From assembly GCA_013388605.1 (NCBI GenBank), contig JACAEY010000068.1, positions 1 to 53,356 of the forward strand: 53,356 bases of DNA, given 5' to 3'. Origin of the DNA: Nitrospirota bacterium. Its GTDB lineage: Bacteria; Nitrospirota; Thermodesulfovibrionia; Thermodesulfovibrionales; SM23-35. Positions 1,188-46,180 of this stretch are shown here, in pieces. Position 1 is the first letter of the stretch, and each line of letters starts with the position of its first letter. The translations under genes and the position numbers were made by a program. The notes beneath the pieces were generated by a model, which did no database searches, was not told the DNA's origin, and saw only the letters and a list, made by a program, of their open reading frames with translations.

Positions 1188-1730
1188 AATGTTTTTCAGG
1201 CCTTTTCTTTCCACGAGTTTTTTCCATCTTTTATATACAAAGACCATTTCTATAAAGTCTTCCCTGAGGATAGGATCCTGAAGCCTTACATCATCTGTAA
1301 CAGGGATAAGTGGAAAATGTCTTATAAATGTGCCTCCAAATATACCAACCCCTTTGCTACCTGGTATACCCGTAGGTGTATAGACTTTAACTCCGCCGAT
1401 GCCTGAACTTGGAGACTTGCTCTTGAAGATAAATCCACAAAGGTTTTCATAAGCGAGTTCTTTTATTTTCTTTTCTGCCCATTTTAACATTCCTATAGTA
1501 TGATCAACTCCTGTATGAACAGTTACAAGTCGAGGTGTTTCAGGGTCACCAACTAAATGCATTTCCTCTCTTGGGACAGGTAGACCATATTCAACTTCAG
1601 GACAAACAGGGACCCACTCAAAATACATCCCAAGTGTTTCAGTAATATACCTATCTAATTTATGCCCTCCATCATAACGAACCTTCTCACCAAGAAGGCA
1701 TGAACTAATCCCAATCTTAATTTTTTTCAT
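1158..1730 (-). CDS. DUF523 family protein (YbbK/TudS-like), without a full DUF1722 half
   Basis: 190 aa. The N-terminus MKKIKIGISSCLLGEKVRYDGGHK...VPVCPEV is typical of DUF523. It ends on a TGA at 1158-1160 and overlaps the convergent repeat-protein ORF by 30 nt. Confidence 0.7.
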   Translation of the reverse strand: MKKIKIGISSCLLGEKVRYDGGHKLDRYITETLGMYFEWVPVCPEVEYGLPVPREEMHLVGDPETPRLVTVHTGVDHTIGMLKWAEKKIKELAYENLCGFIFKSKSPSSGIGGVKVYTPTGIPGSKGVGIFGGTFIRHFPLIPVTDDVRLQDPILREDFIEMVFVYKRWKKLVERKGLKNILFSEHLLCL

Positions 1731-1848
1731 TTCTTGTTTTCAAACTACTAACACATTTCTTTATTGCTCAACTCATGAAATTTTTTAAACTCAATAAGAT
1801 AAAAATAGTAACAATATAGCTAATTCATTCTAAGAGAAATGGGTTGTG

Positions 1849-3657: not shown

Positions 3658-3689
3658 AATTCTTATTCCTCCAATACTATTTTACCACA

Positions 3690-4427
3690 CTAAAGACTAA
3701 CCATAACTCCACTTAGCTCTATTATTCCTTTCTGAATCTTTATAAGAGTATTAATACCCTCTTCAGCAAGACTGATGAGAGAATTTAATGTACCTTTTGA
3801 AAAAGGTGAACCTTCTGCTGTACCTTGAATTTCTACAAATCTACCACTACCGGTCATTACAACATTCATATCCACTGAGGCTATAGAATCTTCTAAATAG
3901 CATAGATCAAGTCTTGGTTCGCCATTTATAATTCCTACGCTTATTGCAGCTAAATAGTCTTTGAGTGGCGTCTTTTCTATAAGCCCATTTCTCAGAGCAT
4001 ATCTCAGAGCATCGGCAAGAGATATGAAAGACCCTGTTATCGCTGCTGTTCTTGTTCCTCCATCTGCTTGTATTACATCACAGTCTATCCATATTGTTCT
4101 CTCGCCAATACCTGATAGATCAACAACAGACCTGAGTGAACGTCCTATAAGTCTCTGTATTTCATGAGTCCTTCCTGTAATCTTACCTGTTGTAGATTCC
4201 CTTATAATTCTCGTTGAAGTTGCTCTCGGAAGCATCGAATATTCTGCTGTTATCCATCCCTTTTTCTGATCTTTCAGAAAAGGCGGAACTTTGTCCTCTA
4301 TTGTTGCTGTACATATCACCCTTGTGTTTCCCATTTCTATCATAACCGAACCTTCAGCAGTCTTTATAAAGTTTCTGTGTATCCTCACCTCGCGCATCTC
4401 GTTATTCTTTCTTCCATCTGGTCTCAT
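3690..4427 (-). CDS. rph: ribonuclease PH
   Basis: 245 aa. [14 protein letters not shown]..., [12 protein letters not shown] and the overall length are typical of RNase PH. Confidence 0.95.
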
Positions 4428-4474
4428 CTATTACCCAAATTTTAATTCAAACTCTCTTTAATTTTAACTGATTA

Positions 4475-5278
4475 TCAGAGTTTTATCATCTCTATGTGCT
4501 CTATGCTACTTCCTAAAAAGCGTTCACCTACTATTACAAATCTTTCAGGCAAATCAGTTACATAAAATTCTCTTAATGCACCGCCTTGATATCCCTTTTT
4601 TAAATCAGAAGTCTCCAGAATCTCCTTAATCTCTTTAGCAACCTCAACAGCAGAATCTATTAGTGTTACTTCTTTATCCATTACTTTTGAAATAACTCCT
4701 TTCAGTAAAGGATAATGGGTGCATCCAAGAACAAGAGTGTCTATGCCTATGTCCTTCATATCCAATAGATATTTCTCTGCAACCATGGTAGCTATTTCTC
4801 CCTCTACCCAACCTTCTTCAACTAAAGGCACGAACAGGGGGCAGGGAAGTTGGTAAACCTCTATATCTCTATCAACAGACTTAATTGACTTTTCATAAGA
4901 GCTACTTCTTATAGTTGCCTCTGTTCCTATCACTCCAACTCTCTTATTTCTTGTTGTTCTAACAGCAGCCTTTGCCCCTGGTTCAATTACACCGACAACT
5001 GGTATAGAAACAGTTCTTCTAATACTATCAAGACTGATAGAAGATGCTGTATTACATGCTACTACAAGGAGCTTTATATCTTTTGAATAAAGGAAATGGG
5101 TATTTTCGAGTGAGTATCTTATGACAGTCTCAGGAGAACGTATACCGTAAGGGACTCTCGCTGTATCTCCGAGATAAATAGTACTCTCATTTGGCATCTC
5201 TTTTATTATCTCCTTCAAAACAGTTAGCCCCCCTATCCCTGAATCAAAGACTCCAATAGGTCTGTATTTATTATCCAT
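4475..5278 (-). CDS. murI: glutamate racemase
   Basis: 267 aa with IGVFDSGIGGLTV, VVACNTAS and LGCTHYP motifs. Confidence 0.95.
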   Translation of the reverse strand: MDNKYRPIGVFDSGIGGLTVLKEIIKEMPNESTIYLGDTARVPYGIRSPETVIRYSLENTHFLYSKDIKLLVVACNTASSISLDSIRRTVSIPVVGVIEPGAKAAVRTTRNKRVGVIGTEATIRSSSYEKSIKSVDRDIEVYQLPCPLFVPLVEEGWVEGEIATMVAEKYLLDMKDIGIDTLVLGCTHYPLLKGVISKVMDKEVTLIDSAVEVAKEIKEILETSDLKKGYQGGALREFYVTDLPERFVIVGERFLGSSIEHIEMIKL

Positions 5279-7302: not shown

Positions 7303-7648
7303 TGGTGGAGGCGGCGGGAATTGAACCCGCGTCCGAAAGTATGACCACCCAAATTTCTACATGTTTATTCTGCTTTTTCATCTCGGATAATGAACTGCCA
7401 GCAGAAGGGCTTTTCATTATCCAATCTCCATATTTCTTGCTTTAAGGAAAGGAGAAAATCCTTAAAGCCAGCCTGCTACCGACACTATCTCCAAGACACA
7501 GGCAATCTCGAAGTAGTGTGCTGCTTCAATTAAGCAGCGAGTGCCAGTTCGTTGTTGGCGCTTGTATATGTTTCCGCTTTTTTACGTGGTGACGGAGCCA
7601 CGACATGCTTTCTGAGCTTCATAACCTCCGTCGAGCCCTGTCGCCCCC
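7303..7648 (-). ncRNA. ssrA: tmRNA (SsrA), tag peptide (A)ANNELALAA
   Basis: The 5' end is GGGGGCGACAGGGCTCGACGG and the 3' end is GGACGCGGGTTCAATTCCCGCCGCCTCCACCA. The 7-bp acceptor stem has G3:U and is followed by an encoded CCA. The tag reading frame GCC AAC AAC GAA CTG GCA CTC GCT GCT TAA lies at 7559..7530. Total length is 346 nt. Confidence 0.93.
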
Positions 7649-8115: not shown

Positions 8116-9513
8116 TTACTCATTAAAACCTTTGGTTTCATAATATTGAAGGTAAGAATTACTTAGATTTCTACCTACACAGAAATATTTATATCCTAAT
8201 TTTTTTAGTTTCTGGGGAACATATATGTTTCTTAGGTCGAAGAAGAAAGGTTCTGAAAGGAGCTTTTTCAGTCTTTCAAGCTCTAAGTTCCTGAACTGAT
8301 TCCATTCCGTCATGATAACGAGCGCATGAGCACCTTCTGCAGCTTCATAGGGATCTTTACAGAATTTTATCAACTTAGAACTTGAAGTAGAGAGAGCTGA
8401 ACCTTCACCAGATAACTTAATACTATTTAATAAAAGTTCTCTACTTTTAAATACCGGGTCATAAGCCCTGATCTTTGCCCCTTCTTTAAGTAATCTTCTA
8501 ATTATATAGATGGAAGGTGCATCACGAATATCATCTGTATTTGGTTTAAATGAGAGCCCCAGGATTGCAATAGTCTTGCCTTTTAGCCTTCCAATAGCAT
8601 CCTTTATCTTTTTTGCCATTGACTCCCGCTGTCTTTCATTTGCCCTGACTGCTGCATATATAATTCCAAGCTCCACATTATGTTCCTCAGCCATCTTTAA
8701 AAGTGCCTTTGTGTCTTTTGGAAGACAGGAACCACCATAGCCAGGCCCTGGGTGAAGAAACTTTGGACCTATCCTCTGATCAAGCCCCATGCCTTTTGCA
8801 ACCATATGGACATCAGCCCCTACTTTATCACAGAGATTTGATATCTCATTGATGAAAGAAATCTTTGTTGCAAGGAAAGAATTAGAAGCATACTTGATAA
8901 GTTCTGATGTCTCGATATTCGTAATTACGAAAGGGGTCTCGATAAGATAGAGTGGTTTATAAAGGTCTTTCATTATAGCAACAGCCTGCTGGCTGTCTGC
9001 GCCAATGACAACCCTATTTGGTCTCATGAAATCCTCTATTGCAGAGCCCTCCCTGAGAAATTCAGGGTTTGAGACTATATCAAAGTCAACCTTTTCATTG
9101 AGATGTCTTGATACAATCTTCCTTAGTCTGTCACCTGTTCCAACAGGCACAGTACTCTTTGTAACTATTACCTTATATTCTTTCATATTTACAGCTATCT
9201 CTTTTGCAACCTCTTCTATATAGCTAAGGTCTGCAGAACCATCTCCTCTTGGAGGTGTGCCAACAGAAATGAATAAAACAAGAGATGACCTTACTGCTTC
9301 AGCAATATCTGTTGTAAAGGTTAATCTCCCTTCTTTTATGTTTCTCTGGACAAGCTCTTCAAGACCTGGCTCATAGAAAGGAATTTTGCCCTGTTTCAAG
9401 GATTTTATTTTTTTTGTGTCTTTGTCTACACATGTGACAAATACTCCAAATTCTGCAAAACAGGCACCTGTTACAAGTCCAACATATCCTGTACCAATTA
9501 CTCCTATATGCAT
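8116..9513 (-). CDS. ugd: UDP-glucose 6-dehydrogenase
   Basis: 465 aa with the Rossmann motif IGTGYVGLVTGACFAEFG and the catalytic motif GGSCLPKD. Confidence 0.93.
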   Translation of the reverse strand: MHIGVIGTGYVGLVTGACFAEFGVFVTCVDKDTKKIKSLKQGKIPFYEPGLEELVQRNIKEGRLTFTTDIAEAVRSSLVLFISVGTPPRGDGSADLSYIEEVAKEIAVNMKEYKVIVTKSTVPVGTGDRLRKIVSRHLNEKVDFDIVSNPEFLREGSAIEDFMRPNRVVIGADSQQAVAIMKDLYKPLYLIETPFVITNIETSELIKYASNSFLATKISFINEISNLCDKVGADVHMVAKGMGLDQRIGPKFLHPGPGYGGSCLPKDTKALLKMAEEHNVELGIIYAAVRANERQRESMAKKIKDAIGRLKGKTIAILGLSFKPNTDDIRDAPSIYIIRRLLKEGAKIRAYDPVFKSRELLLNSIKLSGEGSALSTSSSKLIKFCKDPYEAAEGAHALVIMTEWNQFRNLELERLKKLLSEPFFFDLRNIYVPQKLKKLGYKYFCVGRNLSNSYLQYYETKGFNE

Positions 9514-10268
9514 GATTTACTCCTTATCATAATTTTATCTTCCCATATCTTGGTATATTTCGAGAATGTATAATAACTATAAAGAAGGGACAGTATCAAT
9601 CCATATTTACCATCAAGAAATCCTCTTCTAAAAATAAACATATTTAAAAACGTGAATAAAGGTCGAAGAGTAAATGAAAAAATATTAGGCATGAAATCCT
9701 TTTGGCCCATTTCTTTTGCTGATAGTGTAGAGTAATTCTCTAATTTTGATATGAATTCTGAGATAGACCTTGCTGTATAATGCTCCATCGGGTTCTTCAT
9801 ATACCCTAAACTCCCTCTGACTATTAACTTTTCATGAACTTCACGCTTTTGCATAAATGCGTTGTCTTTTTTAAAAAGTCTAAGTGTATAATCTGGCCAC
9901 CATCCACCGTGTTTTATCCATTTCCCGAGAAAAAAATTCTTTCGTGGTATATAAAAACCGTTGTGGTCTTTATTTTCTATTGAAGAAGATATCTCTGCTC
10001 TTAACTCTGGTGTAATCCTCTCATCAGCATCCAGTATCATAACCCACGGCATTGATGCTTTATCAATTCCTTTCTGTTTCTGCTTTGCATATCCCTCCCA
10101 TTCTTTCTGGAATACCTTATCGGTGTATTTTTTACATATATCAACAGTATGGTCTGTACTGAAAGAATCAATTACTATTATTTCAGAAAAATCCTTTATG
10201 CTCTCGAGTGCGTCTTGGATATTAAACTCTTCATCTTTTGTTACTATTACTGTAGAAACGGGGATCAA
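9504..10268 (-). CDS. family 2 glycosyltransferase (LPS-core type)
   Basis: 254 aa with VIVTKDEE...VIDSFSTD...LDADE motifs. Its stop overlaps the ugd start by 10 nt. Confidence 0.8.
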   Translation of the reverse strand: MIPVSTVIVTKDEEFNIQDALESIKDFSEIIVIDSFSTDHTVDICKKYTDKVFQKEWEGYAKQKQKGIDKASMPWVMILDADERITPELRAEISSSIENKDHNGFYIPRKNFFLGKWIKHGGWWPDYTLRLFKKDNAFMQKREVHEKLIVRGSLGYMKNPMEHYTARSISEFISKLENYSTLSAKEMGQKDFMPNIFSFTLRPLFTFLNMFIFRRGFLDGKYGLILSLLYSYYTFSKYTKIWEDKIMIRSKSCI

Positions 10269-17591: not shown

Positions 17592-18485
17592 ATGGATATA
17601 CATCAATTAAAGGTATTTACATCAGTTTTCAAAAACAGGAGCTTCTCAAAGGCATCAGAAGAACTTAACCTTACACAGCCAACCATAAGTGACCACATAA
17701 AGACACTTGAAGAAGAGCTTGATTGCAGACTCTTTGACAGGCTTGGAAGGATAATCATACCAACAAAAGAGGCAGAGGCTTTATATACCCATGCGATGGA
17801 AATTATAGAAAAAGCTAATATAACAAAAGACATAATCGGAAGATTTAAAAAAGAACTTACAGGAGAATTAGTTATTGGGGCAAGTACTATACCTGGCACA
17901 TATCTGATGCCTTCTCTAATAGCTACATTTCAGAGAAAACACCCCTCTGTTTCTTTCCAGATATTCATATCTGATTCAAAGGATATAGGTGAGAAGGTAC
18001 TGAAACACAAGATTCTTTTAGGAGTCGTTGGCACAAAATTTATTAATGGGGATATAAATCACATTCCCTTTGTCGAAGATGAATTAATTGTGGTATCTTC
18101 TCCCTCTTTGATTAAGAGCGACACGATAACTTTAAAAGATTTAATAAAGTTTCCAATGATACTAAGGGAAGAAGGTTCTGGAACAAGAAGAGAGCTTGAA
18201 AAGATCTTAGATTCAAAAGGTGTTACACTGGAAGATATTAAAATCGCTGGTGTATTTGGTTCAACAGATGCAGTAAAACAGGCTGTTAAAGCAGGACTTG
18301 GATTTTCAGTGCTATCAAAATTATCAGTAATTGATGAGTTAAAACATAAGATAGTTAAAGAGATCAAACTTACAGATATTCAGATGAAGAGGAAATTCTA
18401 TATAGTTATTCACAAAAAAAGAACCCTCCCACTTTTATATAGCAACTTTTTGGAACACCTTAAGGCTGAATCAAAAAAGATATAA
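17592..18485 (+). CDS. LysR-family transcriptional regulator, selenium-cluster associated by position
   Basis: 297 aa with the N-terminal wHTH FSKASEELNLTQPTISDHIKTLEEEL and a LysR substrate-binding fold. It lies 305 nt upstream of yedE, co-oriented. Confidence 0.85.
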   Translation: MDIHQLKVFTSVFKNRSFSKASEELNLTQPTISDHIKTLEEELDCRLFDRLGRIIIPTKEAEALYTHAMEIIEKANITKDIIGRFKKELTGELVIGASTIPGTYLMPSLIATFQRKHPSVSFQIFISDSKDIGEKVLKHKILLGVVGTKFINGDINHIPFVEDELIVVSSPSLIKSDTITLKDLIKFPMILREEGSGTRRELEKILDSKGVTLEDIKIAGVFGSTDAVKQAVKAGLGFSVLSKLSVIDELKHKIVKEIKLTDIQMKRKFYIVIHKKRTLPLLYSNFLEHLKAESKKI

Positions 18486-18554
18486 AAGTAAAAATCATTA
18501 TTTCGAAATATGCAACTGAATCGATTATACCTATCTCTCATGTTTTAGTGCTTT

Positions 18555-18660
18555 TTACTCAACTTATCTATAATTGCCTTTTTATTATTTTTAGAAAGCA
18601 AAAATCTATAAATTAAGTTATTACCATAGATATAATCAATTTGATTTATAGTTTTTTATT
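18555..18660 (+). repeat. 106-bp direct repeat R1 (shared upstream module of the yedE operon)
   Basis: ttactcaacttatctataattgcctttttattatttttagaaagcaaaaatctataaattaagttattaccatagatataatcaatttgatttatagttttttatt recurs at 21794..21900, differing by one substitution and one extra t. It contains a TATAAT hexamer and nested inverted repeats (ATCTAT-N16-ATAGAT and CTATAAAT...ATTTATAG). Confidence 0.9.
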
Positions 18661-18790
18661 ATTTATTATTTAAATATAGACAAAAAATTCTGAAATTTAA
18701 AATTAATTCATAATTTATAAGGAATTTATTTAAAACGAAAATATATAAAGTCTACTTATTTTACAAACACAAACATTAAAGGGGTTCTGA

Positions 18791-19882
18791 ATGGGCGTTA
18801 AGAATTTTTTTGGAACTTGCTTGGGTATTGTTCTGGTAGGTATTTTCATAGGTACTTTTGCTGCCTTACTTCAAAAATCGGGAAACCCAGCAAATATGGG
18901 TATTTGTGTCGCCTGTTTTGAAAGAGACATAGCAGGGGCTCTTGGGATACATAGGGCAGCTGTTGTCCAGTATATAAGACCTGAAATCATAGGTTTTGTC
19001 TTTGGCTCCTTAATTGCTGCATATGCTTTTAAGGAGTTTAGACCAAGGGTTGGTTCAGCCCCTATTGTCCGATTCGTTTTAGGATTTTTTGCAATGAGCG
19101 GTGCTCTTGTTTTTTTGGGTTGCCCGTGGCGTGCATTCCTCAGACTTGCAGGCGGAGATGGCAATGCCATCCTTGGTATTGCAGGGCTTGCTACTGGTGT
19201 AGCTGTAGGCGTTATCTTCTTAAAGAATGGATACAGTCTGGGAAGAAATCAAAAAACATTCACTTCAGTAGGCTGGATACTACCCCTTATCATGGCGAGT
19301 CTCTTTGCATTTCTGATCATTGCTCCCTTGATGGGCGATGGTGGTCAATCAGGTCCTATATTTTTCAGTGAAAATGGGCCTGGCTCAATGCATGCTCCTA
19401 TTGCAGTTTCTTTAATTGTTGGACTTCTTATAGGTTTCCTTGCACAGAGGACTCGATTTTGCACAATGGGTGCAATCAGGGATATTCTATTAATTAGAAA
19501 TTTTCATCTGGCAAGTGGAGTATTTGCTCTTTTAATTGCCGCCTTTATAACAAATCTCATATTAGGCCAATTTAAATTAGGATTTGCAGGTCAGCCGGTT
19601 GCCCATACCAACCACATCTGGAATTTTCTTGGAATGTCTTTAACGGGTCTCGCCTCTGCTCTTGCAGGAGGTTGTCCGGGTAGGCAATTATTCTTAGCAG
19701 GAGAGGGAGATGGTGATGCTGCTATATTTGTGCTTGGCATGATCTTTGGTGCCGGCTTTTCACATAATTTCTCACTTGCAAGCACTCCGGCTGGAATTGG
19801 TTTTTACGGGCCTCATGCTGTAATTATTGGAATCCTTGTATGCTTTTTTATAGGACTTACTATGCGAGAAAAAATAAAGTAA
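18791..19882 (+). CDS. yedE: YedE-family putative selenium/sulfur-compound transporter
   Basis: 363-aa polytopic protein with paired Cys-containing motifs (MGICVACFERD, RFCTMGAIRD, GGCPGRQ). A TusA-like gene follows it. Confidence 0.8.
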   Translation: MGVKNFFGTCLGIVLVGIFIGTFAALLQKSGNPANMGICVACFERDIAGALGIHRAAVVQYIRPEIIGFVFGSLIAAYAFKEFRPRVGSAPIVRFVLGFFAMSGALVFLGCPWRAFLRLAGGDGNAILGIAGLATGVAVGVIFLKNGYSLGRNQKTFTSVGWILPLIMASLFAFLIIAPLMGDGGQSGPIFFSENGPGSMHAPIAVSLIVGLLIGFLAQRTRFCTMGAIRDILLIRNFHLASGVFALLIAAFITNLILGQFKLGFAGQPVAHTNHIWNFLGMSLTGLASALAGGCPGRQLFLAGEGDGDAAIFVLGMIFGAGFSHNFSLASTPAGIGFYGPHAVIIGILVCFFIGLTMREKIK

Positions 19883-19891
19883 GAAGGTTTT

Positions 19892-20113
19892 ATGGGTGAA
19901 CAAGTTGACGCAAGAGGGCTTTCATGTCCCCAGCCAGTTATATTGACACATAATAAGATGAAGGTGCTTAGGAAAGGTGTCTTTGAGGTGCTGGTTGATA
20001 CTGATACTTCACGTGAAAATATAAGTCGCCTTGCAAAAAATGAAGGCTGGGAAATTATAGATACTAAAAAAACAGAGGATTCAGGATACATCCTGACTCT
20101 TAGGAAAGAATAA
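19892..20113 (+). CDS. TusA/SirA-like sulfur(selenium) carrier protein
   Basis: 73 aa with the DARGLSCPQP (CPxP) motif. Confidence 0.85.
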   Translation: MGEQVDARGLSCPQPVILTHNKMKVLRKGVFEVLVDTDTSRENISRLAKNEGWEIIDTKKTEDSGYILTLRKE

Positions 20114-20115
20114 AT

Positions 20116-20646
20116 TTGCCCTTAATTAAATCTAAAAAAGAAGAAAAAAAACCCGATAGAGGGTTCCTGGTATTTCACAATACGAGTGATGTAATTAGAG
20201 CAGAAAAGATCTTGAAAAAAGAGGGATTTAAAATCCGAGTTATGGGACCTCCTCCAGAGCATCGCAGGGGATGCGATCTTGTTATTGAATTCCCTTTAAT
20301 CGAACAACTTAATATTCTAAGGATTCTTGAGAAGAAAAGTACCCCACCAATTGATGCAGTTCCTGTAGATAATCCCCTACTCAAACCAATAGAAATTGTT
20401 AAAACCAAAGATTTTGGGAAATATATAATGGTAAGAGCAGCAAACATGAAAATGACCGTAGAAAAAAGTACTTTGAAAATTGTTAATATTTCTGGAGGTG
20501 GTTGTCCTGATGTACCTTATCTGGCTGAGAAGCTAATTGGGAAAACCCTTAAAGAGGCACCTGAACCAAAGCAGATTGGACATACTCTTTGTGCTTATGC
20601 TTTACATATAGCTTATGAGGAGATGACAAAGAGATGCTTGCTTTGA
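20116..20646 (+). CDS. DUF3343 domain protein with Cys-containing C-terminal extension (IscU/NifU-like signature)
   Basis: 176 aa with a TTG start 2 nt after the upstream stop. The N-terminal half GFLVFHNTSDVIRAEKILKKEGFKIRVMGPPPEHRRGCDLVIEF matches the DUF3343 pattern. The C-terminal half carries ISGGGCPDVPYLAEKLIGKTLKEA...GHTLCAYALHIA. Confidence 0.65.
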   Translation: MPLIKSKKEEKKPDRGFLVFHNTSDVIRAEKILKKEGFKIRVMGPPPEHRRGCDLVIEFPLIEQLNILRILEKKSTPPIDAVPVDNPLLKPIEIVKTKDFGKYIMVRAANMKMTVEKSTLKIVNISGGGCPDVPYLAEKLIGKTLKEAPEPKQIGHTLCAYALHIAYEEMTKRCLL

Positions 20647-21530
20647 TTGGTACAATCCCTTATGACGGCTTTCCCATTCTTTCAGGAGAAATTTCTGTTA
20701 AAAACAGTAATATTTTAATTGGGGAAAAGTCTTTTCAGATTAAGAGAGGGTTTAAAGCCATGATAGGTGCTGCATCAATAGTTTGCAAAGAGCTGAGTCT
20801 TTTTCCTCCAACAGCATTTACTGCAGGGGATATTGGGCTAGGTGATGGCAGCAAAAGACTCTATGAACATCTGAGGAATCAACTTAGTGGAATTCAAGTT
20901 TCAGTCCTAACCTTTCACTATCTTATGCCTGATATATTCTGGCATGATCAGATCATTAAAGCTATTGAAGAGATGTCAAAAAAGCCTATACTTATTGCAG
21001 ATGCAGGATTTATGTATGTAGCCAAGATGAGTGGTTTTGCACCTTTTTATGATCTTTTTACACCAGATATAGGAGAACTTGCTTTTTTAGCTGATGAGTT
21101 AGCTCCTCATCCTTTTTACACAAGAGGTTTTATCTGTCATGAAGAAAATAACGTCCCATCCTTAATCTCAAGGGCATATAAAAGTGAAAACGCCTCAAAG
21201 TTTTTGATAGTAAAAGGGGAAAATGACTACATATGCAGTAATGGAGAAATAATAGCTATTATTAAAGAACCTAATGTAGAGACATTAGAACCCATAGGAG
21301 GGACTGGTGATACTTTAACGGGCATTGTATCAGCACTTGTATATAGTGGTTATGCCATTGAGGACGCAGCAGTAATGGCTGCAATAATTAACCGCCTGGC
21401 AGGAGAGCTTGCTAATCCTTCGCCAAGTACACAGGTTTCAGAAATAATTTCATACATACCAAAGGCACTCTCTATTGTTCTGAAAAGTTTAGATAAAAAG
21501 AATAATGAAATTCATGTTAAAGGAAATTAA
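20634..21530 (+). CDS. ribokinase-fold protein, YjeF_C/NnrD-like (function unknown)
   Basis: 298 aa. PILIADAGFMY...FTPDIGELAFL...LIVKGENDYI...PIGGTGDTLTGIVSAL...AA..A...AG follows the order of motifs in ADP/ATP-dependent NAD(P)HX dehydratase-type kinases. Overlaps the upstream gene by 13 nt. Confidence 0.6.
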   Translation: MLALIGTIPYDGFPILSGEISVKNSNILIGEKSFQIKRGFKAMIGAASIVCKELSLFPPTAFTAGDIGLGDGSKRLYEHLRNQLSGIQVSVLTFHYLMPDIFWHDQIIKAIEEMSKKPILIADAGFMYVAKMSGFAPFYDLFTPDIGELAFLADELAPHPFYTRGFICHEENNVPSLISRAYKSENASKFLIVKGENDYICSNGEIIAIIKEPNVETLEPIGGTGDTLTGIVSALVYSGYAIEDAAVMAAIINRLAGELANPSPSTQVSEIISYIPKALSIVLKSLDKKNNEIHVKGN

Positions 21531-21720
21531 CCTAACTGAAAAAGTAAAGGCCTCCGGTTGAGCGGCTAAACTAAGCCTAGGGACTGAGCGAGGTTATGGC
21601 AGATTTGCTGTAATAAAGCACCCAAACTTCACAATAGTTTATGAGACTTCCGATGATGCTGGAGCCTATAAGCTGGGTTCAAGACTCTTAAATGAGGCAT
21701 TAGCCCTTATGTATGTGCTG
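21506..21720 (+). pseudogene. decayed 5' fragment of a selD gene retaining the in-frame TGA
   Basis: Frame A from the ATG at 21506 gives MKFMLKEINLTEK, then a TAA. Frame A-1 from 21541 gives KVKASG-TGA(21559-21561)-AAKLSLG...KHPNFTIVYETSDDAGAYKLG. Compare intact SelD: MKVKNSVKLSEKVRAAG-TGA-ASKISPL...KHPDLLVGIETSDDAGVYRL. There is a 1-nt frameshift near 21541, and no similarity after about 21720. Confidence 0.75.
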
Positions 21721-21793
21721 TCTAAGTCAGGGAAGGTTAATTTTTTCAAGATGCTTAAAACAGCCATAACATGTTTCCAGAAGAAACATCTTG

Positions 21794-21900
21794 TTACTCA
21801 ACTTATCTATAATTGCCTTTTTATTATTTTTAAAAAGCAAAAATCTATAAATTAAGTTATTACCATAGATATAATCAATTTGATTTATAGTTTTTTTATT
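21794..21900 (+). repeat. 106-bp direct repeat R2 (shared upstream module of selD)
   Basis: Near-identical copy of 18555..18660. Weaker similarity continues to the start codons. The yedE leader reads ttttacaaacac...taaaggggttctgaATG and the selD leader reads ttttacaaatat...taaagagaaggggttcttacttaaATG. Confidence 0.9.
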
Positions 21901-21991
21901 TTTTAAAATTATAAAAAATGGGTGGAAAAATTGTAGAAATACCTTTTACAAATATCGGTTCTAAATTTAAAGAGAAGGGGTTCTTACTTAA

Positions 21992-23041
21992 ATGAAAGTG
22001 AAAAACTCAGTAAAATTATCTGAAAAGGTTCGCGCTGCTGGTTGAGCTTCAAAAATAAGTCCGTTGGACTTAACAGAGATTCTCAACTGCCTTACTTTCG
22101 ATAAACATCCTGATCTCCTTGTAGGTATAGAGACGTCGGATGATGCAGGCGTATATCGTCTCACACCTGAAATAGCACTCATACAGACACTGGATTTCTT
22201 CACCCCGATTGTCAATGATCCTTATGATTTTGGAAGAATAGCAGCGACAAATGCATTCAGTGATGTCTATGCAATGGGCGGAAAACCTCTCACTGCGATG
22301 AATATTGTATGTTTCCCAATAAAAGAACTCGACAAAGATACTCTACGTGCTATCCTTCAAGGAGGGCTTGAGGTAATCCATAAAGCAGGTGCGGTTATGG
22401 TAGGGGGTCATAGTGTTGAGGACCGTGAGCTGAAATATGGTCTTTCAGTTACGGGCATTGTTCACCCTGATAAAATCTTGACTAATGCAGGTGCAAAACC
22501 GGGCGATCTATTGATTCTAACAAAACCTCTTGGAACAGGTATCTTATCAACTGCTTTAAAAGGTGGAAAACTAAATGAAAAACAGACTTGTAACCTTACA
22601 GAATTGATGGCTACATTAAATAAAGATGCTGCTGAGGTGATGACCGATATAGGAGTTAATGCATGCACTGATATCACTGGTTTTGGACTTCTCGGTCATG
22701 CCTTAGAAATTGCAAAGGCAAGTAATGTCAGTATCCGTATTTATTCAGATAAGGTCCCTGTAATTTCTGATGCCATAGAATTTGCATCTATGGGAATGAT
22801 ACCTGAAGGTAGCCATTTGAACCAGAAATTTTGTCGTCAATACCTTGATATTTCTCCTGAATTAGACCCAATCACAGGAGATATTCTCGCCGACGCACAG
22901 ACCTCAGGTGGTCTCTTGATATCTGTTCCCGAGGAAAAGTCTAAACAACTTTTAAATGGGCTTATTGAACGAAAAACACCTGCTGCAAAAGTAATAGGGG
23001 AGGTTTTCAGCGAACCGAAAGGGGTTATACAGATAAGGTGA
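21992..23041 (+). CDS. selD: selenide, water dikinase SelD, selenocysteine-containing (UGA at 22043-22045)
   Basis: The track ORF 22064..23041 extends in frame upstream through a single TGA to the ATG at 21992, which is preceded by aagggg. The N-terminus MKVKNSVKLSEKVRAAG-U-ASKISPLDL places U where SelD has its catalytic Cys/Sec, three residues before the conserved Lys. The rest is typical SelD (ETSDDAGVY, FFTPIV, GGHSVED). Confidence 0.88.
22056..22072 (+). promoter_or_regulatory. SECIS-like hairpin downstream of the selD UGA
   Basis: taagtcc-gtt-ggactta forms a 7-bp stem with a GUU loop. It starts 10-11 nt after the UGA, the spacing expected for bacterial SECIS elements. Confidence 0.5.
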
Positions 23042-23078
23042 TAATTTTGTTTACCTGACCATGAAGGAGTTAAATACG

Positions 23079-23669
23079 ATGATCGTTGATGCAAGAGGAT
23101 ATGGATGTCCAAAGCCTGTTCTCATGGCGGAAGAGGCATTATCAAAAATAACAGAAGGCGGGATAGAAATACTCGTTGATAACGAGGCATCTGCAAATAA
23201 TCTTAAGAGGTTTGCAGCAAAGAACAATTTCTATTCAGATGTAATTAAAGAAGAAAATTTCTGGTGTGTCAGGATTGTCAAAGGATATGTCTGTGAGATA
23301 CCTGCGGAGGAGTACAAAGAAAAGAAACCTGGTAAAGACTTATTTCTTGTCATTGCTACAGATACAATAGGCAAAGAGGAAGAACTTGGCAGAATACTTA
23401 TGAAGGCATACTTTGAGACAATGAAAGCATATAAAGAGCTACCAGATGCAATATTCTTTTTGAACACAGGGGTGAAAATTACTACAGTAGATAATGAAAT
23501 ACTTCCAATAATCAAAGAAATTGAAGAAATGGGAGTAGAAATCTTTACCTGTGGCACATGCCTTAAGTTCTTTAATCTCGAATCAGAACTTAAGGTTGGG
23601 TTCAGGGGAACAACAAATCATCTTGTAGAAGGTATTAAAGAGTTTAAAAAGACTGTATGGGTTGGATAA
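23079..23669 (+). CDS. yedF: YedF-type selenium metabolism protein (TusA-like N-domain + DsrE-like C-domain)
   Basis: MIVDARGYGCPKPVLMA (CPxP), then a DsrE-like half ending in TCGTCLKF. AAGGAG lies 9 nt upstream of the ATG at 23079. An alternative in-frame ATG is at 23061. Confidence 0.8.
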   Translation: MIVDARGYGCPKPVLMAEEALSKITEGGIEILVDNEASANNLKRFAAKNNFYSDVIKEENFWCVRIVKGYVCEIPAEEYKEKKPGKDLFLVIATDTIGKEEELGRILMKAYFETMKAYKELPDAIFFLNTGVKITTVDNEILPIIKEIEEMGVEIFTCGTCLKFFNLESELKVGFRGTTNHLVEGIKEFKKTVWVG

Positions 23670-25206: not shown

Positions 25207-26220
25207 ATGCCAGCCAATCTTCCACCAGAGTATTTTGAGGCAGAAAAAAGATTTAGACAGGCATCAACACCTGCAGAGAAGATATTTGCCCTTGAAGAAC
25301 TTATTGCAACAGTTCCTAAACATAAAGGGACGGATAGATTAAGAGGTGACTTACGGAGAAAACTCTCCCAGCTTAAGAGAGAGGCTGAGATAGCAAGACG
25401 TTCAAAAAAGGGGGGCAAAAGTTATCTTTATGTAGTTGAGAAAGAAGGCGCTGCCCAGGTTGCGTTTGTTGGATTTGCTAACTCAGGTAAGTCCTCTCTC
25501 CTTGCAGGTTTGACTAATGCTAATCCTGTTATCGCAGAGTATCCTATCTCAACTATTATCCCCCTTCCTGGCATGATGCCGTTTGAGGATATACAGATTC
25601 AACTTGTAGATTTACCACCTGTGGGAAACGAATCAACCGATGGATGGGTATCAGGAATTCTGAGAACAGCAGATGCCTTTCTCATTATTCTTGACCTTAC
25701 AGAAGACCCAGATGTCCAGGCAGACCTACTCATAGAACAAATGAGAAAATGGAACATAACAATCATAAATAATTCTTCTTTTGTCAACTCCGAACTATCC
25801 AGTCAAAGACAGACTTTTACTTTATTCAAGAGGGCGCTTTTTGTTGGGAACAAAAATGATCTACCTTTTACAAAAGAAAACTATATAAGACTAAAGGAAA
25901 GATTTGCTAATCTCTATCCATGTATTTCGGTCTCTGCCCTAAAAAAAGAAAATCTTGAGGAACTTAAAAGGGAAATATTCAGCATTACAGGAATTATCAG
26001 GGTTTACTCTAAACCCCCTGGGAAGGAACCAGATTTTTCAATTCCTTTCACAATTCCAGCTGGTTCCACTGTGTTAGACCTCGCTGAATCAATCCACAAA
26101 GATTTTGTTCATAACTTAAGATATGCAAGAATCTGGGGTTCTGCAAAATTTGACGGTCAGCGTGTTGAAAAAAATTATGTTCTAAAAGATAAAGATATTG
26201 TGGAATTTCATGTCTCTTAA
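25207..26220 (+). CDS. OBG/DRG-family GTP-binding protein with C-terminal TGS domain
   Basis: 337 aa with a basic helical N-terminus, G1 motif [15 protein letters not shown]-type G4 (GNKNDL) and a TGS-like C-terminus ([14 protein letters not shown]...[12 protein letters not shown]). Confidence 0.8.
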
Positions 26221-28625
26221 TCTTTCTCAACAACCTTCGCAATACTAACAACCTTGTCTTCTCCTTCAACATCCATTAATCTTACACCCTGTGTGTTTCT
26301 TCCATGAAGCGAAATCTCTTTTGCCAAAGTCCTTATAATCTTCCCTGAGCTTGTTATCATCACAACCTCATCTTCATCTCTGACCTGCATGAGACCGACC
26401 GCCTTCCCCCCCTTCTCTGTCACCTTAATTGAAATAACCCCTTTTCCACCTCTACTCTGAACCGGATAGTCTTCAATCTTTGAACGTTTGCCAAGACCTC
26501 TTTCTGTAACTGTCAGGATTGATGTTTTTTCCTCTGCCACTTCAGCAGAAACGACTTCGTCCCCTTCCCTGAGTCTAATCCCCCTTACACCTTTTGCGGT
26601 CCTCCCCGTATCACGAACATCCTCTTCATTAAATCTTATTGAAAGACCGTTTCTTGTTCCAATAATAAGGTCACTTTTACCATCTGTCTTTCTAACTGCA
26701 ATAAGTTCATCACCTTCATCAAGGGTAATTGCAATTATTCCTTTTCCCCGAGGATTACCATATTCTTCAAGTGCGGTCTTTTTAACTACACCTTTCTTGG
26801 TAAACATAACAAGAAAGCCTTCTTTGAATTGTCGAACGGGGAGTGCTGTAGTGATCCTCTCGCCTTCTGTTAGGGTAAGTAAATTTACAAGGGGTTTACC
26901 CCGAGTAGCCCTACCTGCCTCGGGTATCTGAAATGCCTTAAGCCAGTAAAGACGCCCAAGGTTTGAAAAGAAGAGCATATAATCATGTGTAGCACCTACG
27001 AAAAGCTGTTCAACAAAGTCCTCTTCTTTCGTCTCCATCCCTACAAGGCCCTTCCCCCCCCTTCTCTGACTCCTGTATATACTTAAAGGGTTTCTTTTTA
27101 TATATCCATAATGAGAGAGGGTAATCACCATCTCCTCATCCATTATGAGGTCTTCTATTGTAATCTCTTTGGTCTCAGAGGTAATCTCTGTTCTCCTTTC
27201 ATCAGCATATTTCTTTTTAATCTCTAATAGTTCCTCTTTGATAATATTTGAAATGAGGGACTCACTTCCAAGTATCGCCCTCAGCCTCTCTATCTCTTTT
27301 AGAGTATCACCAAATTCCCTAACAATCTTTTCCCTCTCAAGACCTGTTAGTCTCTGTAGTTTCATATCGAGGATTGCCTGGGCTTGTATCTCTGAGAAAG
27401 GATAATTATTCATCAAAGAAGTCTTTGCTTCTTCAGGTGTCCGTGATTGTTTTATGAGTGTAATTATATCATCGAGGTGGTCGAGAGCTATTTTCAGTCC
27501 TTCTAATATATGTAACCTTTCTTCAGCCTTTCTGAGCTCAAACCGCGTTCTTCTAAGGACTACTTCTCTTCTATGCTGTAAGAAATAGTTCAGTAGTCTT
27601 TTAAGTCCTAATACACGCGGCTGACCATTCACAAGTGTTAACATAATAATTCCAAAGGTGCTTTCCATCTGGGTATGTTTGTAAAGATTATTCAGGATTA
27701 CTTCTGCAATCTCACCTCTTTTAAGTTCGAGCACAATTCTTATTCCATCTCTATCAGATTCATCCCTTATTTCTGATATACCGACAATTTTCTTTTCCCT
27801 TACAAGCTCAGCAATCTTTTCTATTAACTTTGCTTTATTAATCTGGTAAGGAAGTTCTGTAATAATGACATTTTCATCGCCTCTATGTTCTCTTTCTATC
27901 CTTGCCTTGGCTCTAACTTTAATAAGACCTTTTCCTTCGTTATATGCTTGAATTATTCCCTCAGTACCATGTACTATGCCTCCCGTTGGAAAATCAGGAC
28001 CTTTTATGACTGTCAAAAGGTCTTTAATTCTAACCTCAGGGTTTTCAATCAACATAATAAGACCATCAACTATCTCTCCCAAATTGTGAGGTGGTATATT
28101 TGTTGCCATTCCAACAGCTATGCCCGAAGAGCCATTTATGATGAGATTGGGTATTCTTGAAGGGAGAACAACAGGTTCTTCTGTCGTCTCATCGAAATTT
28201 GGGACAAAATCTACTGTCTCTTTGTCTATGTCAGCAAGAAGCTCCTCTGCAATGGCTGCAAGCCTTGCCTCTGTATATCTGTAAGCTGCTGGAGGGTCAC
28301 CATCTACGGAACCGAAATTTCCCTGGCCATCTATGAGTGGATACCGCATATTAAAATCCTGTGCAAGCCTTACAAGCGCATCATATACTGCTGTATCACC
28401 ATGAGGATGGTATTTCTTTAAAACCTCACCCACAACACCTGCGCATTTAGAAAATTTCCTTCCAGGAAGAAGACCCTCTCTGAACATTGCATAGAGGATT
28501 CTTCTCTGAACAGGTTTTAGACCATCTCTTACCTCAGGAAGCGCCCTTCCTATTATTACGCTCATAGCATAATCAAGATAAGAACCCTTCATCTCTTCTT
28601 CTATACTTATCTGTATCTGAGCCAT
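26217..28625 (-). CDS. gyrA: DNA gyrase subunit A
   Basis: 802 aa with [12 protein letters not shown] and the [10 protein letters not shown] active-site Tyr region, plus C-terminal beta-pinwheel repeats. Confidence 0.97.
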
Positions 28626-36937: not shown

Positions 36938-37669
36938 TTATCCCACGAAGCTTGGTAATTTCATCAGAGGACGGACCAATCTCTTAATAGCTGCAACCAT
37001 TGTAATTCCTAAACCATTCTCTGCTGCATATTTCCAATATTTTTGTGGATCATCAATTACAAGGAATATTGTTCTTACAGAATCTGCATTAAGTAGCTGT
37101 GCCTTTGGATAAACAGCCTTGAGCTCATTTAGCTTCTTTTTGGCCATATCAAGCATCCTCTCACGGTCACCAAAGTTCATTGCGCCTGTAGGGCAGGCCT
37201 TCACACAGGCTGGTAAAAGCCCCTCCCTGATTCGGTTAATGCACATATTGCACTTTGCCATTATCTGGGTTTTCTCATCCCACCGTGGAATATCCCACGG
37301 ACAGGACTCCCTTATCTTCTTAAAATCTTCCTGCTTTACTTTTATCTTTGGATCATAAAGCACAGCGCCTGTTTCTTCACAGCGCGTGATAGCTTTAGAA
37401 CCTAATGAGATGGCTGTGTACATACATGGTGGTTCGAGACAGTGCCTGCACTGGTCTGTAAAAAAATACCAGTTAGGTTTCCCATTTACCTCTACCTCAC
37501 TGAACCTGACAACCTTCCATGTATTAAAAGACAGGTCTTCAGGGTTTTGATGATTTCCGCGCTGATATGTTTTTGTTCCTTTCAGGTTCCACCATGCCTT
37601 GTCTGCTATCTGGCATCCTCTACAAGCAGTGCATCTAGATGTATCTATGAAAAAGGATTTCCCTGCCAT
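36938..37669 (-). CDS. fdhB: formate dehydrogenase iron-sulfur (beta) subunit
   Basis: 243 aa with ferredoxin-type Cys clusters (CTACRGC, CRHCLEPPC, CNMCINR, CVKACP), immediately downstream of fdhA. Confidence 0.85.
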   Translation of the reverse strand: MAGKSFFIDTSRCTACRGCQIADKAWWNLKGTKTYQRGNHQNPEDLSFNTWKVVRFSEVEVNGKPNWYFFTDQCRHCLEPPCMYTAISLGSKAITRCEETGAVLYDPKIKVKQEDFKKIRESCPWDIPRWDEKTQIMAKCNMCINRIREGLLPACVKACPTGAMNFGDRERMLDMAKKKLNELKAVYPKAQLLNADSVRTIFLVIDDPQKYWKYAAENGLGITMVAAIKRLVRPLMKLPSFVG

Positions 37670-37674
37670 TTACA

Positions 37675-40600
37675 TCACCTCCCTTTACCTTTTGCAGGTA
37701 GTTTTTCTACATTGACCAGAAATGCCTTATATTCTGGGATTGCAGTATTAGCATCACCAATAGTGGGAGTGAGAAGATTAGCACTTTCCCCTTCATCCTT
37801 TGGTACAAGCCATCCATAATGAAACGTCATCCCTACCTCATGTATCGTCAGACCGGCAACTTTAAGGGGTTTCCAGCGCTTGGTAACCATGGCTACTGCT
37901 TCCACTTTTCCTCTCGGAGATGAAACTAAAACACGATCTCCGTTTTTGATTCCCCTGAGCTCAGCAAGCTCCTCGCTCAACTCAACATACATCTGGGGCT
38001 CTGTCTCCAAAAGCCAGGGCTGGTATCTGGTCATCAAACCCGTCTGCCAGTGTTCTGTAACCCTATATGTCGTTGCAACAAACGGGTATCTTGGATCACA
38101 AGTGGTGAATTTATAATCCTTGAAGAGAGCTGTTGTAGGGTTAATCCTCTGTGAAGAGAGTGGGTTCTTTTCAATCGGGCATTCCAGTGGTTCATAATGT
38201 TCAGGAAATGGCCCGTCAGCCATACCAGGACCAAAGATTGAGGCTACTCCATCAGGCTTCATTATAAAAGGTAATTTCCCTCCTTCAAGACCCATTGGAG
38301 GTGCGGGCCCATCCGGCACATCTCCAACCCATTTCTTCTCTGTTGCATCCCATTTTATAACTGCTCTCTTTGTATCTAAGGGATTCCCTTGTAAATCAAC
38401 AGAGGCACGGTTATAAATGATTCTGCGATTAACAGGCCAAGCCCAGGCCCACTTTGGAAATATGTTTGCCGTAGCAAGTGGGGTCTTATCCCTTCTTGCC
38501 ATCATGTTACCAGCCTCAGTGTAGCTACCAGAGTATATCCAGTTACCACTGGATGTACGGCCATCAGCAAGGAGAAACAGAAAAGATGGAACCAGTGTTC
38601 CTTTCTTGTAAGCTTTCTTATCAAATGGATGTTCTGGTATATCCTCAAGGAAGTAACCATTGATATCCTTTGCAACCAGATGAAAATCAACCTTTCCTGC
38701 TTTTTCATAGTCCCATTTAAGTTTTAGAATCGGATCAGGAAATGCACCCTTTTCCTTCTCATAAAGAGCTTTCACTTCCATATAAATTTCATGGATTATC
38801 TGGCCATCAGATTTTGATCCACCAATTGGGTCTATAGCCTTGTAACGCCACTGTGCTGTTCGAGCGCTATCTGATAAACTTCCTTCTTTTTCAACATAAC
38901 TACAGGATGGGAGCAGAAAGACTTCTGTTTTAACCTCCTTCGGCTCCATCCCTGGACCCTTCCAGAAGTTTGTTGTCTCACTCTCAAAGATATCAACTGC
39001 AACCATCCAATCCAGTTTTGAAAGTGCCTCCCTTGACCGATTTGCATTAGGGAGGCTACAAGCAGGGTTCATACCAAGGCAGATGAAACCAGAGAACTTC
39101 TCTTTAAGTATTTCATCGAACATAAATAGAAATGAGGCATTCTGGCCATCATCTAACTTTGGCAACCATTGATAACCGAATCCGTTTTCTTTTGTTGCAT
39201 TCTCGCCATACATGGACTTTAGAAAACTCACAATATACTTTGGTCTGTTTCCCCACCAGTTTACGCTCCGAGGTTCTGCTGTCTTGGGAGTATTCTTTTC
39301 ATTATAATTCTCGAGACTGACATCGGAGGACCTGGGGGATGGATTGTACCCTGGTAGAATATGAAAAAGTAGTGCATGATCTGATATACCTTGAACATTA
39401 GATTCACCTCTGAGGGCGTTCACGCCACCTCCGGCTAACCCCATGTTGCCGAGAAGCAATTGAACAATAGATGCTGCACGGATGTTCTGAGTGCCCACAG
39501 TATGCTGTGTCCAGCCCATTGCATAAAGAACCGTCCCAACCTTGTCAGGTTTGCATGTTGCAGCATAGGCTTCATAAACTTTAATCAGATCTTCCTTTGG
39601 CGTCCCTGTAATATTTGAAATAGTATCTAAGTCATAGCGTGAATAAAATTTTTTCATGAGCTGATAAACACACCGCTCGTTCTGAAGAGATGGATCTTTC
39701 TTAGGAATTCCTTTCTCGTCCTTTTCAAAAGCCCAAAAAGATTTATCGTATGACCTCTTTTCTGGATTATATCCTGAGAAAAGTCCATCTTTAAAATCAT
39801 ATTTTGGATTAACAATAAAGGAAGCATTGGTATTATTAATAACATAGTCTTTCTGAATAAGGTCTTTCTCAAGGATATAATTGATCATACCACCAAGAAA
39901 TGCGATATCCGTCCCTGAGCGAAGAGGCGCATAAATATCTGCTTTGGCTGATGTCCGAGTAAACCTCGGATCAACATGTATTATTTTCCCTCCCATGTCT
40001 TTTGCCCTGAGAATCCATTTCATTGCTACGGGATGGTTTTCTGCAGGATTGCTCCCACAGATTAAAACACAGTCGCTGACACCTATATCTGTCCAGCTAT
40101 TGGTCATTGCCCCGCGACCAAACGACTCTGCCAGAGCCGCTACAGTGGGGCTGTGTCAGAGACGCGCCTCGAATTCTATATAGACTATGCCAAGAGAACG
40201 AAGAAATTTCTGATAAAGCCAGCCTTCTTCATTATTAATATGGGCACTACCTATTGCGGCTATGCCGTTACAACGATTAACCACCTCTCCTTTAGCATTT
40301 TTCTCAACAAAGCTCTTATCTCTGCTCTTTTTAATCCTCTTCGCAATTTCCTTCAGTGCCCACTCCCAGGACTTTTTCTCCCATTTAGAACTATATGGTG
40401 CACGATACATGACATTCTTAAGCCGCTTTGTATTGGTAACCAATCCATAAGTAGATGCACCTTTGGCACAAAGAGAGCCCTCGCTTGTTGGATGATCAGG
40501 ATCGCCTTCGATATTGATAACCTTTCCTCCGCTTGTATGAACAATCTGTCCGCAACCTACTGAACAGTAACAACAAATGGATGTCGTCTCCTTTGCATCT

Positions 40601-40731
40601 TTGATCCTGAGCTCAGCAGCATAAGACTGAACAGGGGTTAGGTCAAGTCCAAGCTGGCTTAAGGCTACCCCTGCTACAGTAGCCCCGGAAATCTTAATAA
40701 AATCCCTTCTTGTAATCTTCATAAGCTTCAA
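37675..40731 (-). CDS. fdhA: formate dehydrogenase catalytic (alpha) subunit, selenocysteine-containing (UGA at 40156-40158), Tat-exported
   Basis: Track ORFs 40156..40731 and 37675..40107 are one gene in a single frame. The junction reads IEFEARL-U-HSPTVAALAESFGRGAMTNSW, the conserved Sec site of FdnG/FdhA. Tat signal is ITRRDFIK. The N-terminal 4Fe-4S motif is CCYCSVGCG. Total length is 1018 codons. Confidence 0.92.
40123..40139 (-). promoter_or_regulatory. SECIS-like hairpin downstream of the fdhA UGA
   Basis: The mRNA sequence cggcucu-ggc-agagucg forms a 7-bp stem including one G-U pair, with a GGC loop. It begins 16 nt after the UGA. Confidence 0.45.
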
Positions 40732-42372: not shown

Positions 42373-44769
<2,397 letters not shown>

Positions 44770-46020: not shown

Positions 46021-46180
46021 ATCTCCTCCTCATTAAAGCCTATTAAAAACATTAATTTATAACCTTATACATTGCTTTTTTAGGTAATGAACATAAACCT
46101 CAGGTGGATCAAAATCACATAATATGCTTTTAAATGAGTTAATATTTAAGTTCCATTATATTTTTTAATGTATTAAATTT

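Follow-up and report, generated by a model that had tools for sequence, protein, structure and literature searches.

In the TsuA/TsuB (YeeE/YeeD) system, a membrane protein of the YeeE/YedE fold is followed by a small cytoplasmic TusA-like protein with a CPxP motif, and the TusA-like protein takes over the imported chalcogen. The selenium locus described here, at positions 17592-23669 of a 53,356-nucleotide (nt) Nitrospirota contig (this whole stretch is called the window below), has the same two kinds of protein in the same order, but it continues with two genes that TsuA/TsuB lacks: one encodes a carrier in which a DUF3343 (Se_S_carrier) domain is joined to a DUF8182 domain, and the next encodes a kinase-like protein assigned to the ribokinase superfamily. 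The YedE protein also fails the TsuA thiosulfate transporter models, with 44.4 and 33.0 bits against cut-offs of 400 (NF052577) and 645 (NF041049). A second related arrangement is YTD (yedE-tusA-dsrEFH type II), in which a dsrE-like gene along with two DsrF/H-like genes come after tusA (PMC13293266). YTD clusters likewise begin with yedE-tusA, continue with small carriers, and occur in the same phyla (Desulfobacterota and Nitrospirota), but their downstream genes encode DsrE/F/H-like sulfur transferases linked to DsrAB, whereas those found here encode the DUF3343-DUF8182 carrier and a Carb_kinase-like protein and are linked to selD, yedF, and LysR_Se. An identity as YTD/DsrEFH was considered for this locus and rejected, as the carrier and kinase-like genes give no DsrE-family match.

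YedE, YedF, LysR_Se, SirA/TusA-like proteins, and DUF3343 were linked to selenium by comparative genomics by Lin et al. in 2015 (PMC5322559); DUF3343 was described there as a protein of 80 to 100 amino acids (aa) with no selenium-specific subfamily, and a kinase-fold partner was not mentioned. The present locus resembles that gene set in its families, in its linkage to selD, in the selenocysteine (Sec)-decoding trait, and in the roles proposed for the transporter, redox carriers, and regulator. It differs in that DUF3343 bears the Cys-rich DUF8182, forming a narrow YedE-linked subfamily, and is locked to a ribokinase-superfamily enzyme. DUF3343, YedF, and LysR are among the top 10 selD-overlapping genes listed by Kayrouz and Seyedsayamdost, but the kinase family is not, and a 2022 review adds nothing further on a kinase-fold partner. 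Our literature search found no paper that ties the kinase family or DUF8182 to selenium and none that names DUF8182 or DUF8180; in Pfam, DUF8182 is entered as a domain without known function. The known members of the cluster are unremarkable, and the DUF3343-DUF8182 carrier with its kinase-like partner constitutes a widespread and previously undescribed extension of a type of system that is already known.

The carrier and the kinase-like protein form an obligate pair inside the seleno-YedE module. Homologues were scanned with one genome per GTDB species, and neighbors were defined by clustering all open reading frames (ORFs) of 82 nonredundant loci, with gene order being judged at loci that had enough flanking sequence to do so (loci with room). 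The kinase-like family was present in at least 563 species genomes; the best 80 loci belong to Nitrospirota (Thermodesulfovibrionales) and to many orders of Desulfobacterota, and metagenome homologues of the carrier and of the kinase-like gene number in the thousands each, on common contigs. The sequence-only reading of this stretch had named a lack of co-occurrence of the two middle genes with selD/yedE in other genomes as a refuting result, and it survived this check: YedE, TusA, carrier, and kinase genes were colinear on one strand in 62 of 64 loci with room (one exception has no TusA and the other has an insertion), a four-gene core that is far beyond chance. Carrier and kinase genes were adjacent in 80 of 82 loci. 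The overlap between carrier stop and kinase start, which is 13 nt in the window, has the same length in 49 of 71 loci and lies between 4 and 16 nt in 69 of 71, and this conservation argues for translational coupling of the two genes.

Fusions of the two genes point in the same direction. When a profile of DUF8182 alone was searched against 1.84 billion cluster representatives, just 119 clusters were recovered, indicating a narrow family, and five of these representatives (P0250, P0254, P0273, P0276, and P0288) are single proteins of 514 to 588 aa composed of Se_S_carrier, DUF8182, a linker, and a full-length kinase-like domain. P0250 is 43% identical to the full kinase-like protein. Fusion genes were looked up in three loci (Table 1); a called TusA gene lies directly upstream from the fusion in L086 and L088, with YedE upstream in L088 as well, and on the 2.3-kb contig that carries the L087 fusion, the upstream side holds just a 73-aa ORF without annotation. 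We regard the fusions as strong evidence that the carrier and the kinase-like protein act as one physical unit.

The invariant cysteines of the module are borne by the carrier, the TusA-like protein, and YedF. Among the relatives of the carrier, the DUF3343 cysteine C53 is kept in 78 of 79, C130 (SGGGCPDVPY, whose CPxxP context resembles TusA) and C159 (GHTLC) in 81 of 81 each, and C174, three residues from the C terminus, in 76 of 78; the fusions keep C53, C130, and C159. Cys12 of the TusA-like protein is found in 70 of 70 relatives, and across the 82 loci there were no variants of carrier, TusA, or kinase with Sec in place of Cys. The DUF8182 family, PF26554, was assigned through a 100%-identical cluster representative (P0121), and a precomputed match was present in 120 of 120 homologues, among the matches listed. 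The AlphaFold model of the carrier (predicted local distance difference test [pLDDT] score, 82) has a ferredoxin-like N-terminal domain and a C-terminal domain of a beta-meander plus helices. Sequence and fold searches of the PDB gave no significant solved relative of the carrier, the hits being generic ferredoxin-like, ACT, and PII folds at E values above 1e-3.

The kinase-like protein belongs, by its fold match and GxGD motif, to the ribokinase-like superfamily. Foldseek matched its model (pLDDT, 71.5) to ThiD/THI20, PfkB, RbsK, NnrD, and PdxK at E values of 8e-6 to 1e-3, with template-modeling scores that reach only about 0.4 owing to low-confidence segments in the model. PDB sequence matches fell in the C-terminal half around the GGTGD/anion-hole motif, weakly to ThiM (E, 1e-4) and marginally to NnrD (E, 0.015 to 0.07), and the PF01256 alignment covers just aa 116-276 (profile positions 92-241). 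The protein shares with NnrD and ThiM the fold and, toward the C terminus, the motifs for the nucleotide and the anion hole (KG, GGTGDxLxG, and the catalytic Asp), but it falls below the equivalog cut-offs of both. Against NnrD, it scored 45.4 bits on TIGR00196 (cut-off, 129.85), with the C-terminal half aligned, and 16 bits on NF007856 (cut-off, 703); against ThiM, it scored 27.4 bits on NF006830 (cut-off, 180). It also differs from them in a family-specific N-terminal half, in the APHPFYTRGF insert, and in being paired or fused with a cysteine carrier. The catalytic position is an Asp (GTGD), at which ThiM presumably has a Cys, and the TPDxGE motif stands where we take NnrD to have TPHxGE.

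Alignment of relatives gave the conserved motifs GDxGxGxGS, FHY, ADAGxMYxAKMSG, YDLFTPDxGE, APHPFYTRGF, KGxxDY, and GGTGDTLTG. D226 (the Asp of GGTGD), H95, and H159 are present in 82 of 82 loci, and no Cys is invariant; APHPFYTRG(F) is invariant in the family and putatively specific to it. The most conserved stretch, aa 141-171, was modeled with low confidence and would be consistent with a lid or with a surface that contacts a partner. A non-catalytic partner that senses nucleotide or acts as a scaffold, and so gates or stabilizes the carrier or YedE, would be in keeping with that disordered stretch, as would be expected of a partner interface, with the lack of a nameable substrate, and with the fusions, which suit a structural as well as an enzymatic role. 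We nevertheless consider such a partner unlikely, as TPDxGE, KG, and GGTGD with D226, the phosphoryl-transfer motifs of the NnrD/ThiM branch, are kept in every fusion as well as in 82 of 82 loci, which is hard to explain without catalysis. Enzymes of this branch transfer a phosphoryl group to a hydroxyl, which in NnrD is followed by elimination. The kinase-like protein appears to be a phosphoryl-transfer enzyme of the NnrD/ThiM branch that is active and has a new substrate.

In the window, the pair belongs to a genuine block of genes for selenium handling. The segment 17592-23669 is made up of seven ORFs, all oriented along the plus strand, and a selD remnant, with the coordinates as read beforehand (Table 1), and the gene order and identities proposed from the letters alone were borne out when the proteins were run against the curated Pfam and NCBIfam profile hidden Markov models, so that the eight-feature reading is confirmed. 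The junctions are short: 9 nt separate YedE from TusA and 19 nt separate selD from yedF, and the 2-nt gap from the TusA stop to the DUF3343 start and the 13-nt overlap between the DUF3343 fusion and the kinase-like gene were exactly as first reported.

Table 1. Features of the selenium locus, other features of the window, and carrier-kinase fusion genes in related loci
Feature	Position	Strand	Assignment and details
LysR_Se, selenium-metabolism LysR-family regulator	17592..18485	+	NCBIfam NF040786 LysR_Sec_metab, 306.1 bits (cut-off 250); Pfam HTH_1 and LysR_substrate
103-nt repeat, copy 1, yedE upstream region	18555..18657	+	box at 18605-18631
YedE-family putative selenium transporter	18791..19882	+	TIGR04112, 491.7 bits (cut-off 200); covers 13-355 of 363 aa
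TusA-like carrier, 73 aa	19892..20113	+	PF01206, 64 bits; CPxP cysteine (GLSCPQP)
DUF3343/Se_S_carrier (aa 16-78) plus DUF8182 (about aa 85-176), 176 aa	20116..20646	+	PF11823, 71.7 bits (cut-off 25); PF26554; TTG start
Kinase-like protein, 298 aa, divergent Carb_kinase, ribokinase superfamily	20634..21530	+	PF01256, 45.7 bits (cut-off 27)
selD 5' remnant	21505..21687	+	SelD match at N terminus; TGA 21559-21561
103-nt repeat, copy 2, between remnant and intact selD	21794..21896	+	box at 21844-21870; 96 nt before selD start
Intact selD, selenophosphate synthetase, putative selenoprotein	21992..23041	+	TIGR00476, 371 bits (cut-off 125); TGA 22043-22045
YedF, TusA-like N-terminal and DsrE-like C-terminal domains	23061..23669	+	TIGR03527, 192.1 bits (cut-off 110); PF01206 aa 8-74, PF02635 aa 114-181
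fdhA, formate dehydrogenase	40731..37675	-	in-frame TGA 40156-40158, motif EARL-U-HSPTV
Fusion gene, locus L086	753-2393
Fusion gene, locus L087	224-1990
Fusion gene, locus L088	8001-9743

The sequence-only reading also held that the window has two UGA-decoded genes and none of selA, selB, and tRNA-Sec, and both statements are upheld. An in-frame TGA was found in each of selD and fdhA, no tRNA gene, and hence no tRNA-Sec, was detected in the window by ARAGORN and Rfam, and neither selA nor selB was among the large window ORFs scanned. The in-frame TGA codons of selD and fdhA indicate that the organism decodes Sec, with the remaining Sec machinery encoded elsewhere in the genome. The formate dehydrogenase operon occupies 36938-40731 on the minus strand, with an FdhB-like iron-sulfur subunit encoded at 36938-37669. 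In intact selD, which starts at the ATG at 21992, the context of the Sec codon (AAG-U-ASK) matches the N-terminal glycine-rich loop of SelD, in which Sec or Cys is followed by Lys. The stem-loop of a bacterial Sec insertion sequence (SECIS) would start about 11 to 15 nt past the UGA; a 7-bp hairpin that may be a SECIS lies at 22056-22072, 13 nt after the selD UGA (-12.1 kcal/mol; z, -2.0), and Rfam reported no SECIS family.

The claim that all of these genes form one co-oriented block held for the shared strand and the short junctions, but the block appears to consist of two units. The two copies of a 103-nt element, one in the yedE upstream region and the other before intact selD, are identical at 102 of 103 nt and are the only copies in the window. 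Both hold a palindromic box, TCTATAAAT-N12-ATAGAT, which takes the form CTATARAT-N12-ATAG in three relatives, upstream from a yedF-yedE operon (L006 7041-7064), yedE (L048 8052-8075), and selD (L040 6657-6680); the sequence around the box in these three loci is only about 75% conserved. The 103-nt element is probably a promoter/operator of the module that was copied in front of selD-yedF, and the palindromic box is possibly a LysR_Se site. As the unit from yedE to the kinase gene terminates in a decayed selD fragment and the intact selD-yedF genes have their own copy of the yedE upstream region, the locus is probably not one operon but two units under common control, namely, yedE-tusA-like-carrier-kinase-like and selD(Sec)-yedF, with the LysR_Se regulator upstream. 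No known riboswitch or leader was reported by Rfam in the window.

The selD remnant called from the sequence proved to be a real, 54-codon SelD-like 5' fragment by alignment. Its ORF starts at the ATG at 21505, overlapping the kinase stop by 26 nt, and reads MKFMLKEINLTEKVKASG-TGA(21559)-AAKLS...IKHPN...YETSDDAGAYKL; it is 57% identical (E, 5e-15) to residues 17-70 of the SelD of L006, beyond which the likeness to SelD ends. The N terminus is of the 'NLTEKVRASGUAAKLSPGDL' type, like that of the selD found directly after the kinase gene in L006 and L007, the nearest Nitrospirota relatives of this locus. Intact selD is of the 'GUASKISP' type and is 72 to 74% identical to the selD genes of L008 and L048. 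There was no hairpin at the SECIS position of the remnant. A functional Sec leader peptide was rejected as an explanation of the remnant, given the missing hairpin, a middle part that is scrambled relative to SelD, and an unrelated 3' part. A recent tandem duplicate of intact selD was rejected because the N-terminal protein sequence is that of the other SelD subtype; by eye, the DNA 5' ends of the two also look only about 55% alike. By its sequence, the remnant is a decayed 54-codon 5' piece of an ancestral kinase-adjacent selD. The difference in subtype suggests that the selD-yedF pair replaced the original selD: the selD after the kinase gene would have decayed, and a selD-yedF pair of the other subtype, accompanied by a copy of the yedE control region, would have taken its place.

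Linkage to selD is also seen across the relatives. The sequence-only reading had tied the two middle genes to selD as well as to yedE, and selD follows the pair directly downstream in 18 of the 68 loci that have room, while 33 of 82 loci (about 40%) contain a selD somewhere within 10 kb, which is far above chance. We estimate that a random single-copy gene would be found near the module at a frequency of about 0.5%, and on this baseline, which is our own, selD is enriched roughly 80-fold. YedF and LysR each recur in about 16 of the 82 loci. We consider it very likely that the pair belongs to selenium trafficking.

Other neighbors were noted at the related loci. In about 30 of 82 loci (for example, L041 4586-4816, L022 5738-5968, and L026 10901-11092), the kinase gene is directly followed by the gene for a DUF1858/ScdA_N-like protein that is about 75 aa long and contains a CxCC motif; this protein is absent from the window and may represent a redox-active fifth component of the module. 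A small DUF8180 protein was rejected as a module member, having been seen in only four distinct loci. On the closest long contig, L001, and also in L009, the module is flanked by BcrAD_BadFG-type activases, a 2-hydroxyglutaryl-CoA dehydratase-like (HGD-D) subunit, and a Fer4/CCG protein (in L001, at about 1100-4700 and 9075-9914).

On balance, we favor the interpretation of 17592-23669 as a two-unit locus for selenium acquisition and activation, probably with one common control region. In the relay that we propose, YedE would import a selenium species, and the TusA-like cysteine would capture the selenium as a perselenide or selenotrisulfide and pass it on to C53, C130, and C159 of the DUF3343-DUF8182 carrier. 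The kinase-fold enzyme bound to the carrier would then spend ATP or ADP, either in a phosphorylation or in an NnrD-like phosphorylation-elimination, and this step would make the capture irreversible or free the selenium in a form that SelD can use. SelD would make selenophosphate for Sec-tRNA synthesis, to the benefit of FdhA, SelD itself, and other selenoproteins. Thiol/disulfide chemistry would come from YedF and, in other genomes, from the DUF1858-like protein, and LysR_Se would bind the palindromic box and coregulate both units. The specific catalytic role assigned here to the kinase is tentative and should be given less weight than the locus as a whole. We speculate that the pair carries out an unrecognized nucleotide-dependent step of selenium assimilation, in which the enzyme acts on selenium held by the carrier or on a hydroxyl that is later displaced by selenium (for example, that of the invariant carrier residue Ser126 or Thr157 beside the cysteines or of a small molecule); this is a possibility about which we are doubtful.

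Several observations weigh against the relay and the locus organization proposed above. The uptake-to-activation relay feeding SelD that was suggested from the sequence alone is a reasonable proposal from gene context and conserved cysteines, and the literature covered records no biochemical step for any protein of the module. The most conserved stretch of the kinase-like protein, aa 141-171, is the one modeled at low confidence, so that the substrate site is unreadable, and the carrier residues C174 and H156 are lost in the fused versions. By exact pattern, the box was matched in only 3 of 85 related loci. Scans for promoter and terminator consensus sequences gave counts at the level of chance, which leaves the repeat and the remnant as the only basis for the operon boundaries. 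In about half of the related loci, no selD is present within 10 kb, the folds of YedE, TusA, and DUF3343 are common to sulfur trafficking, and the host lineages are sulfur-metabolizing anaerobes.

The main rival to a selenium function is that the yedE-tusA-carrier-kinase core serves the trafficking of sulfur, for instance, the import of sulfur from thiosulfate or polysulfide, like TsuA/TsuB or YTD/DsrEFH type II, and that the proximity of selD is secondary. Besides the loci that have no selD nearby and the use of the YeeE/YedE, TusA, and DUF3343 families in sulfur metabolism, this would agree with the hosts being sulfate reducers and Nitrospirota, which also have YedE-TusA sulfur clusters, and with the failure of Lin et al. 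to see a selenium-specific DUF3343 branch (PMC5322559). However, the YedE protein passes the selenium transporter model TIGR04112 and fails those for TsuA, and the carrier and kinase genes have no DsrE/DsrEFH domains, so the module is not YTD. The recurrence of YedF and LysR_Sec_metab, the duplication of the yedE control region before selD-yedF in the window, and the enrichment of selD (roughly 80-fold, on a baseline of our own estimate) argue against it as well, and we judge a sulfur module to be improbable, more so than the noncatalytic partner discussed above. That the kinase-like gene is a housekeeping NnrD NAD(P)HX dehydratase placed beside selenium genes by accident is suggested by public labels and by a Carb_kinase Pfam score above threshold, but it is highly improbable in view of a TIGR00196 score of 45 bits against a cut-off of 130 with only the C-terminal half aligned, the conserved overlap with the carrier gene, to which it is adjacent in 80 of 82 loci, the fusions in five protein clusters, and putatively family-specific invariant motifs such as APHPFYTRG. 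Public records label homologues of the kinase-like protein 'NAD(P)H-hydrate dehydratase' or 'sugar kinase'; with scores well below the NnrD cut-off, such labels are probably a systematic misannotation.

Apart from the selenium locus, the chromosomal origin of replication is probably contained in the window. The minus strand carries dnaA, dnaN, and gyrB, and gyrA is located further off (spans 42373-47515 and 26217-28625); the most AT-rich kilobase, 47001-48000 (GC fraction, 0.286), starts within the final ~500 nt of the dnaA ORF and continues upstream of it, and the cumulative GC skew changes direction near 50 kb. A transfer-messenger RNA gene at 7303-7648 on the minus strand, with the tag peptide ANNELALAA, was the sole structured RNA found by ARAGORN or Rfam and the sole Rfam match.

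How cells pick trace selenium from a huge excess of sulfur and hand a reduced form of it to selenophosphate synthetase is an open question, and the earlier candidates, YedE, YedF, and DUF3343, are passive carriers to which no chemistry has been assigned. With the present locus and its relatives, a component that is enzyme-like and uses nucleotides joins these candidates for the first time, and it is physically tied to a cysteine carrier. The lead comes from comparative genomics only; it offers testable handles in C53, C130, C159, D226, and the candidate operator. Our results give grounds to drop the 'NAD(P)H-hydrate dehydratase' and 'sugar kinase' labels from the kinase family, and they define a selenium-linked DUF3343 subfamily that earlier work missed. 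If the nucleotide-dependent step is real, it would supply, for many anaerobes that together form a large group, the missing specific path by which reduced selenium is delivered to SelD, or even a way to make a new selenium-containing product.

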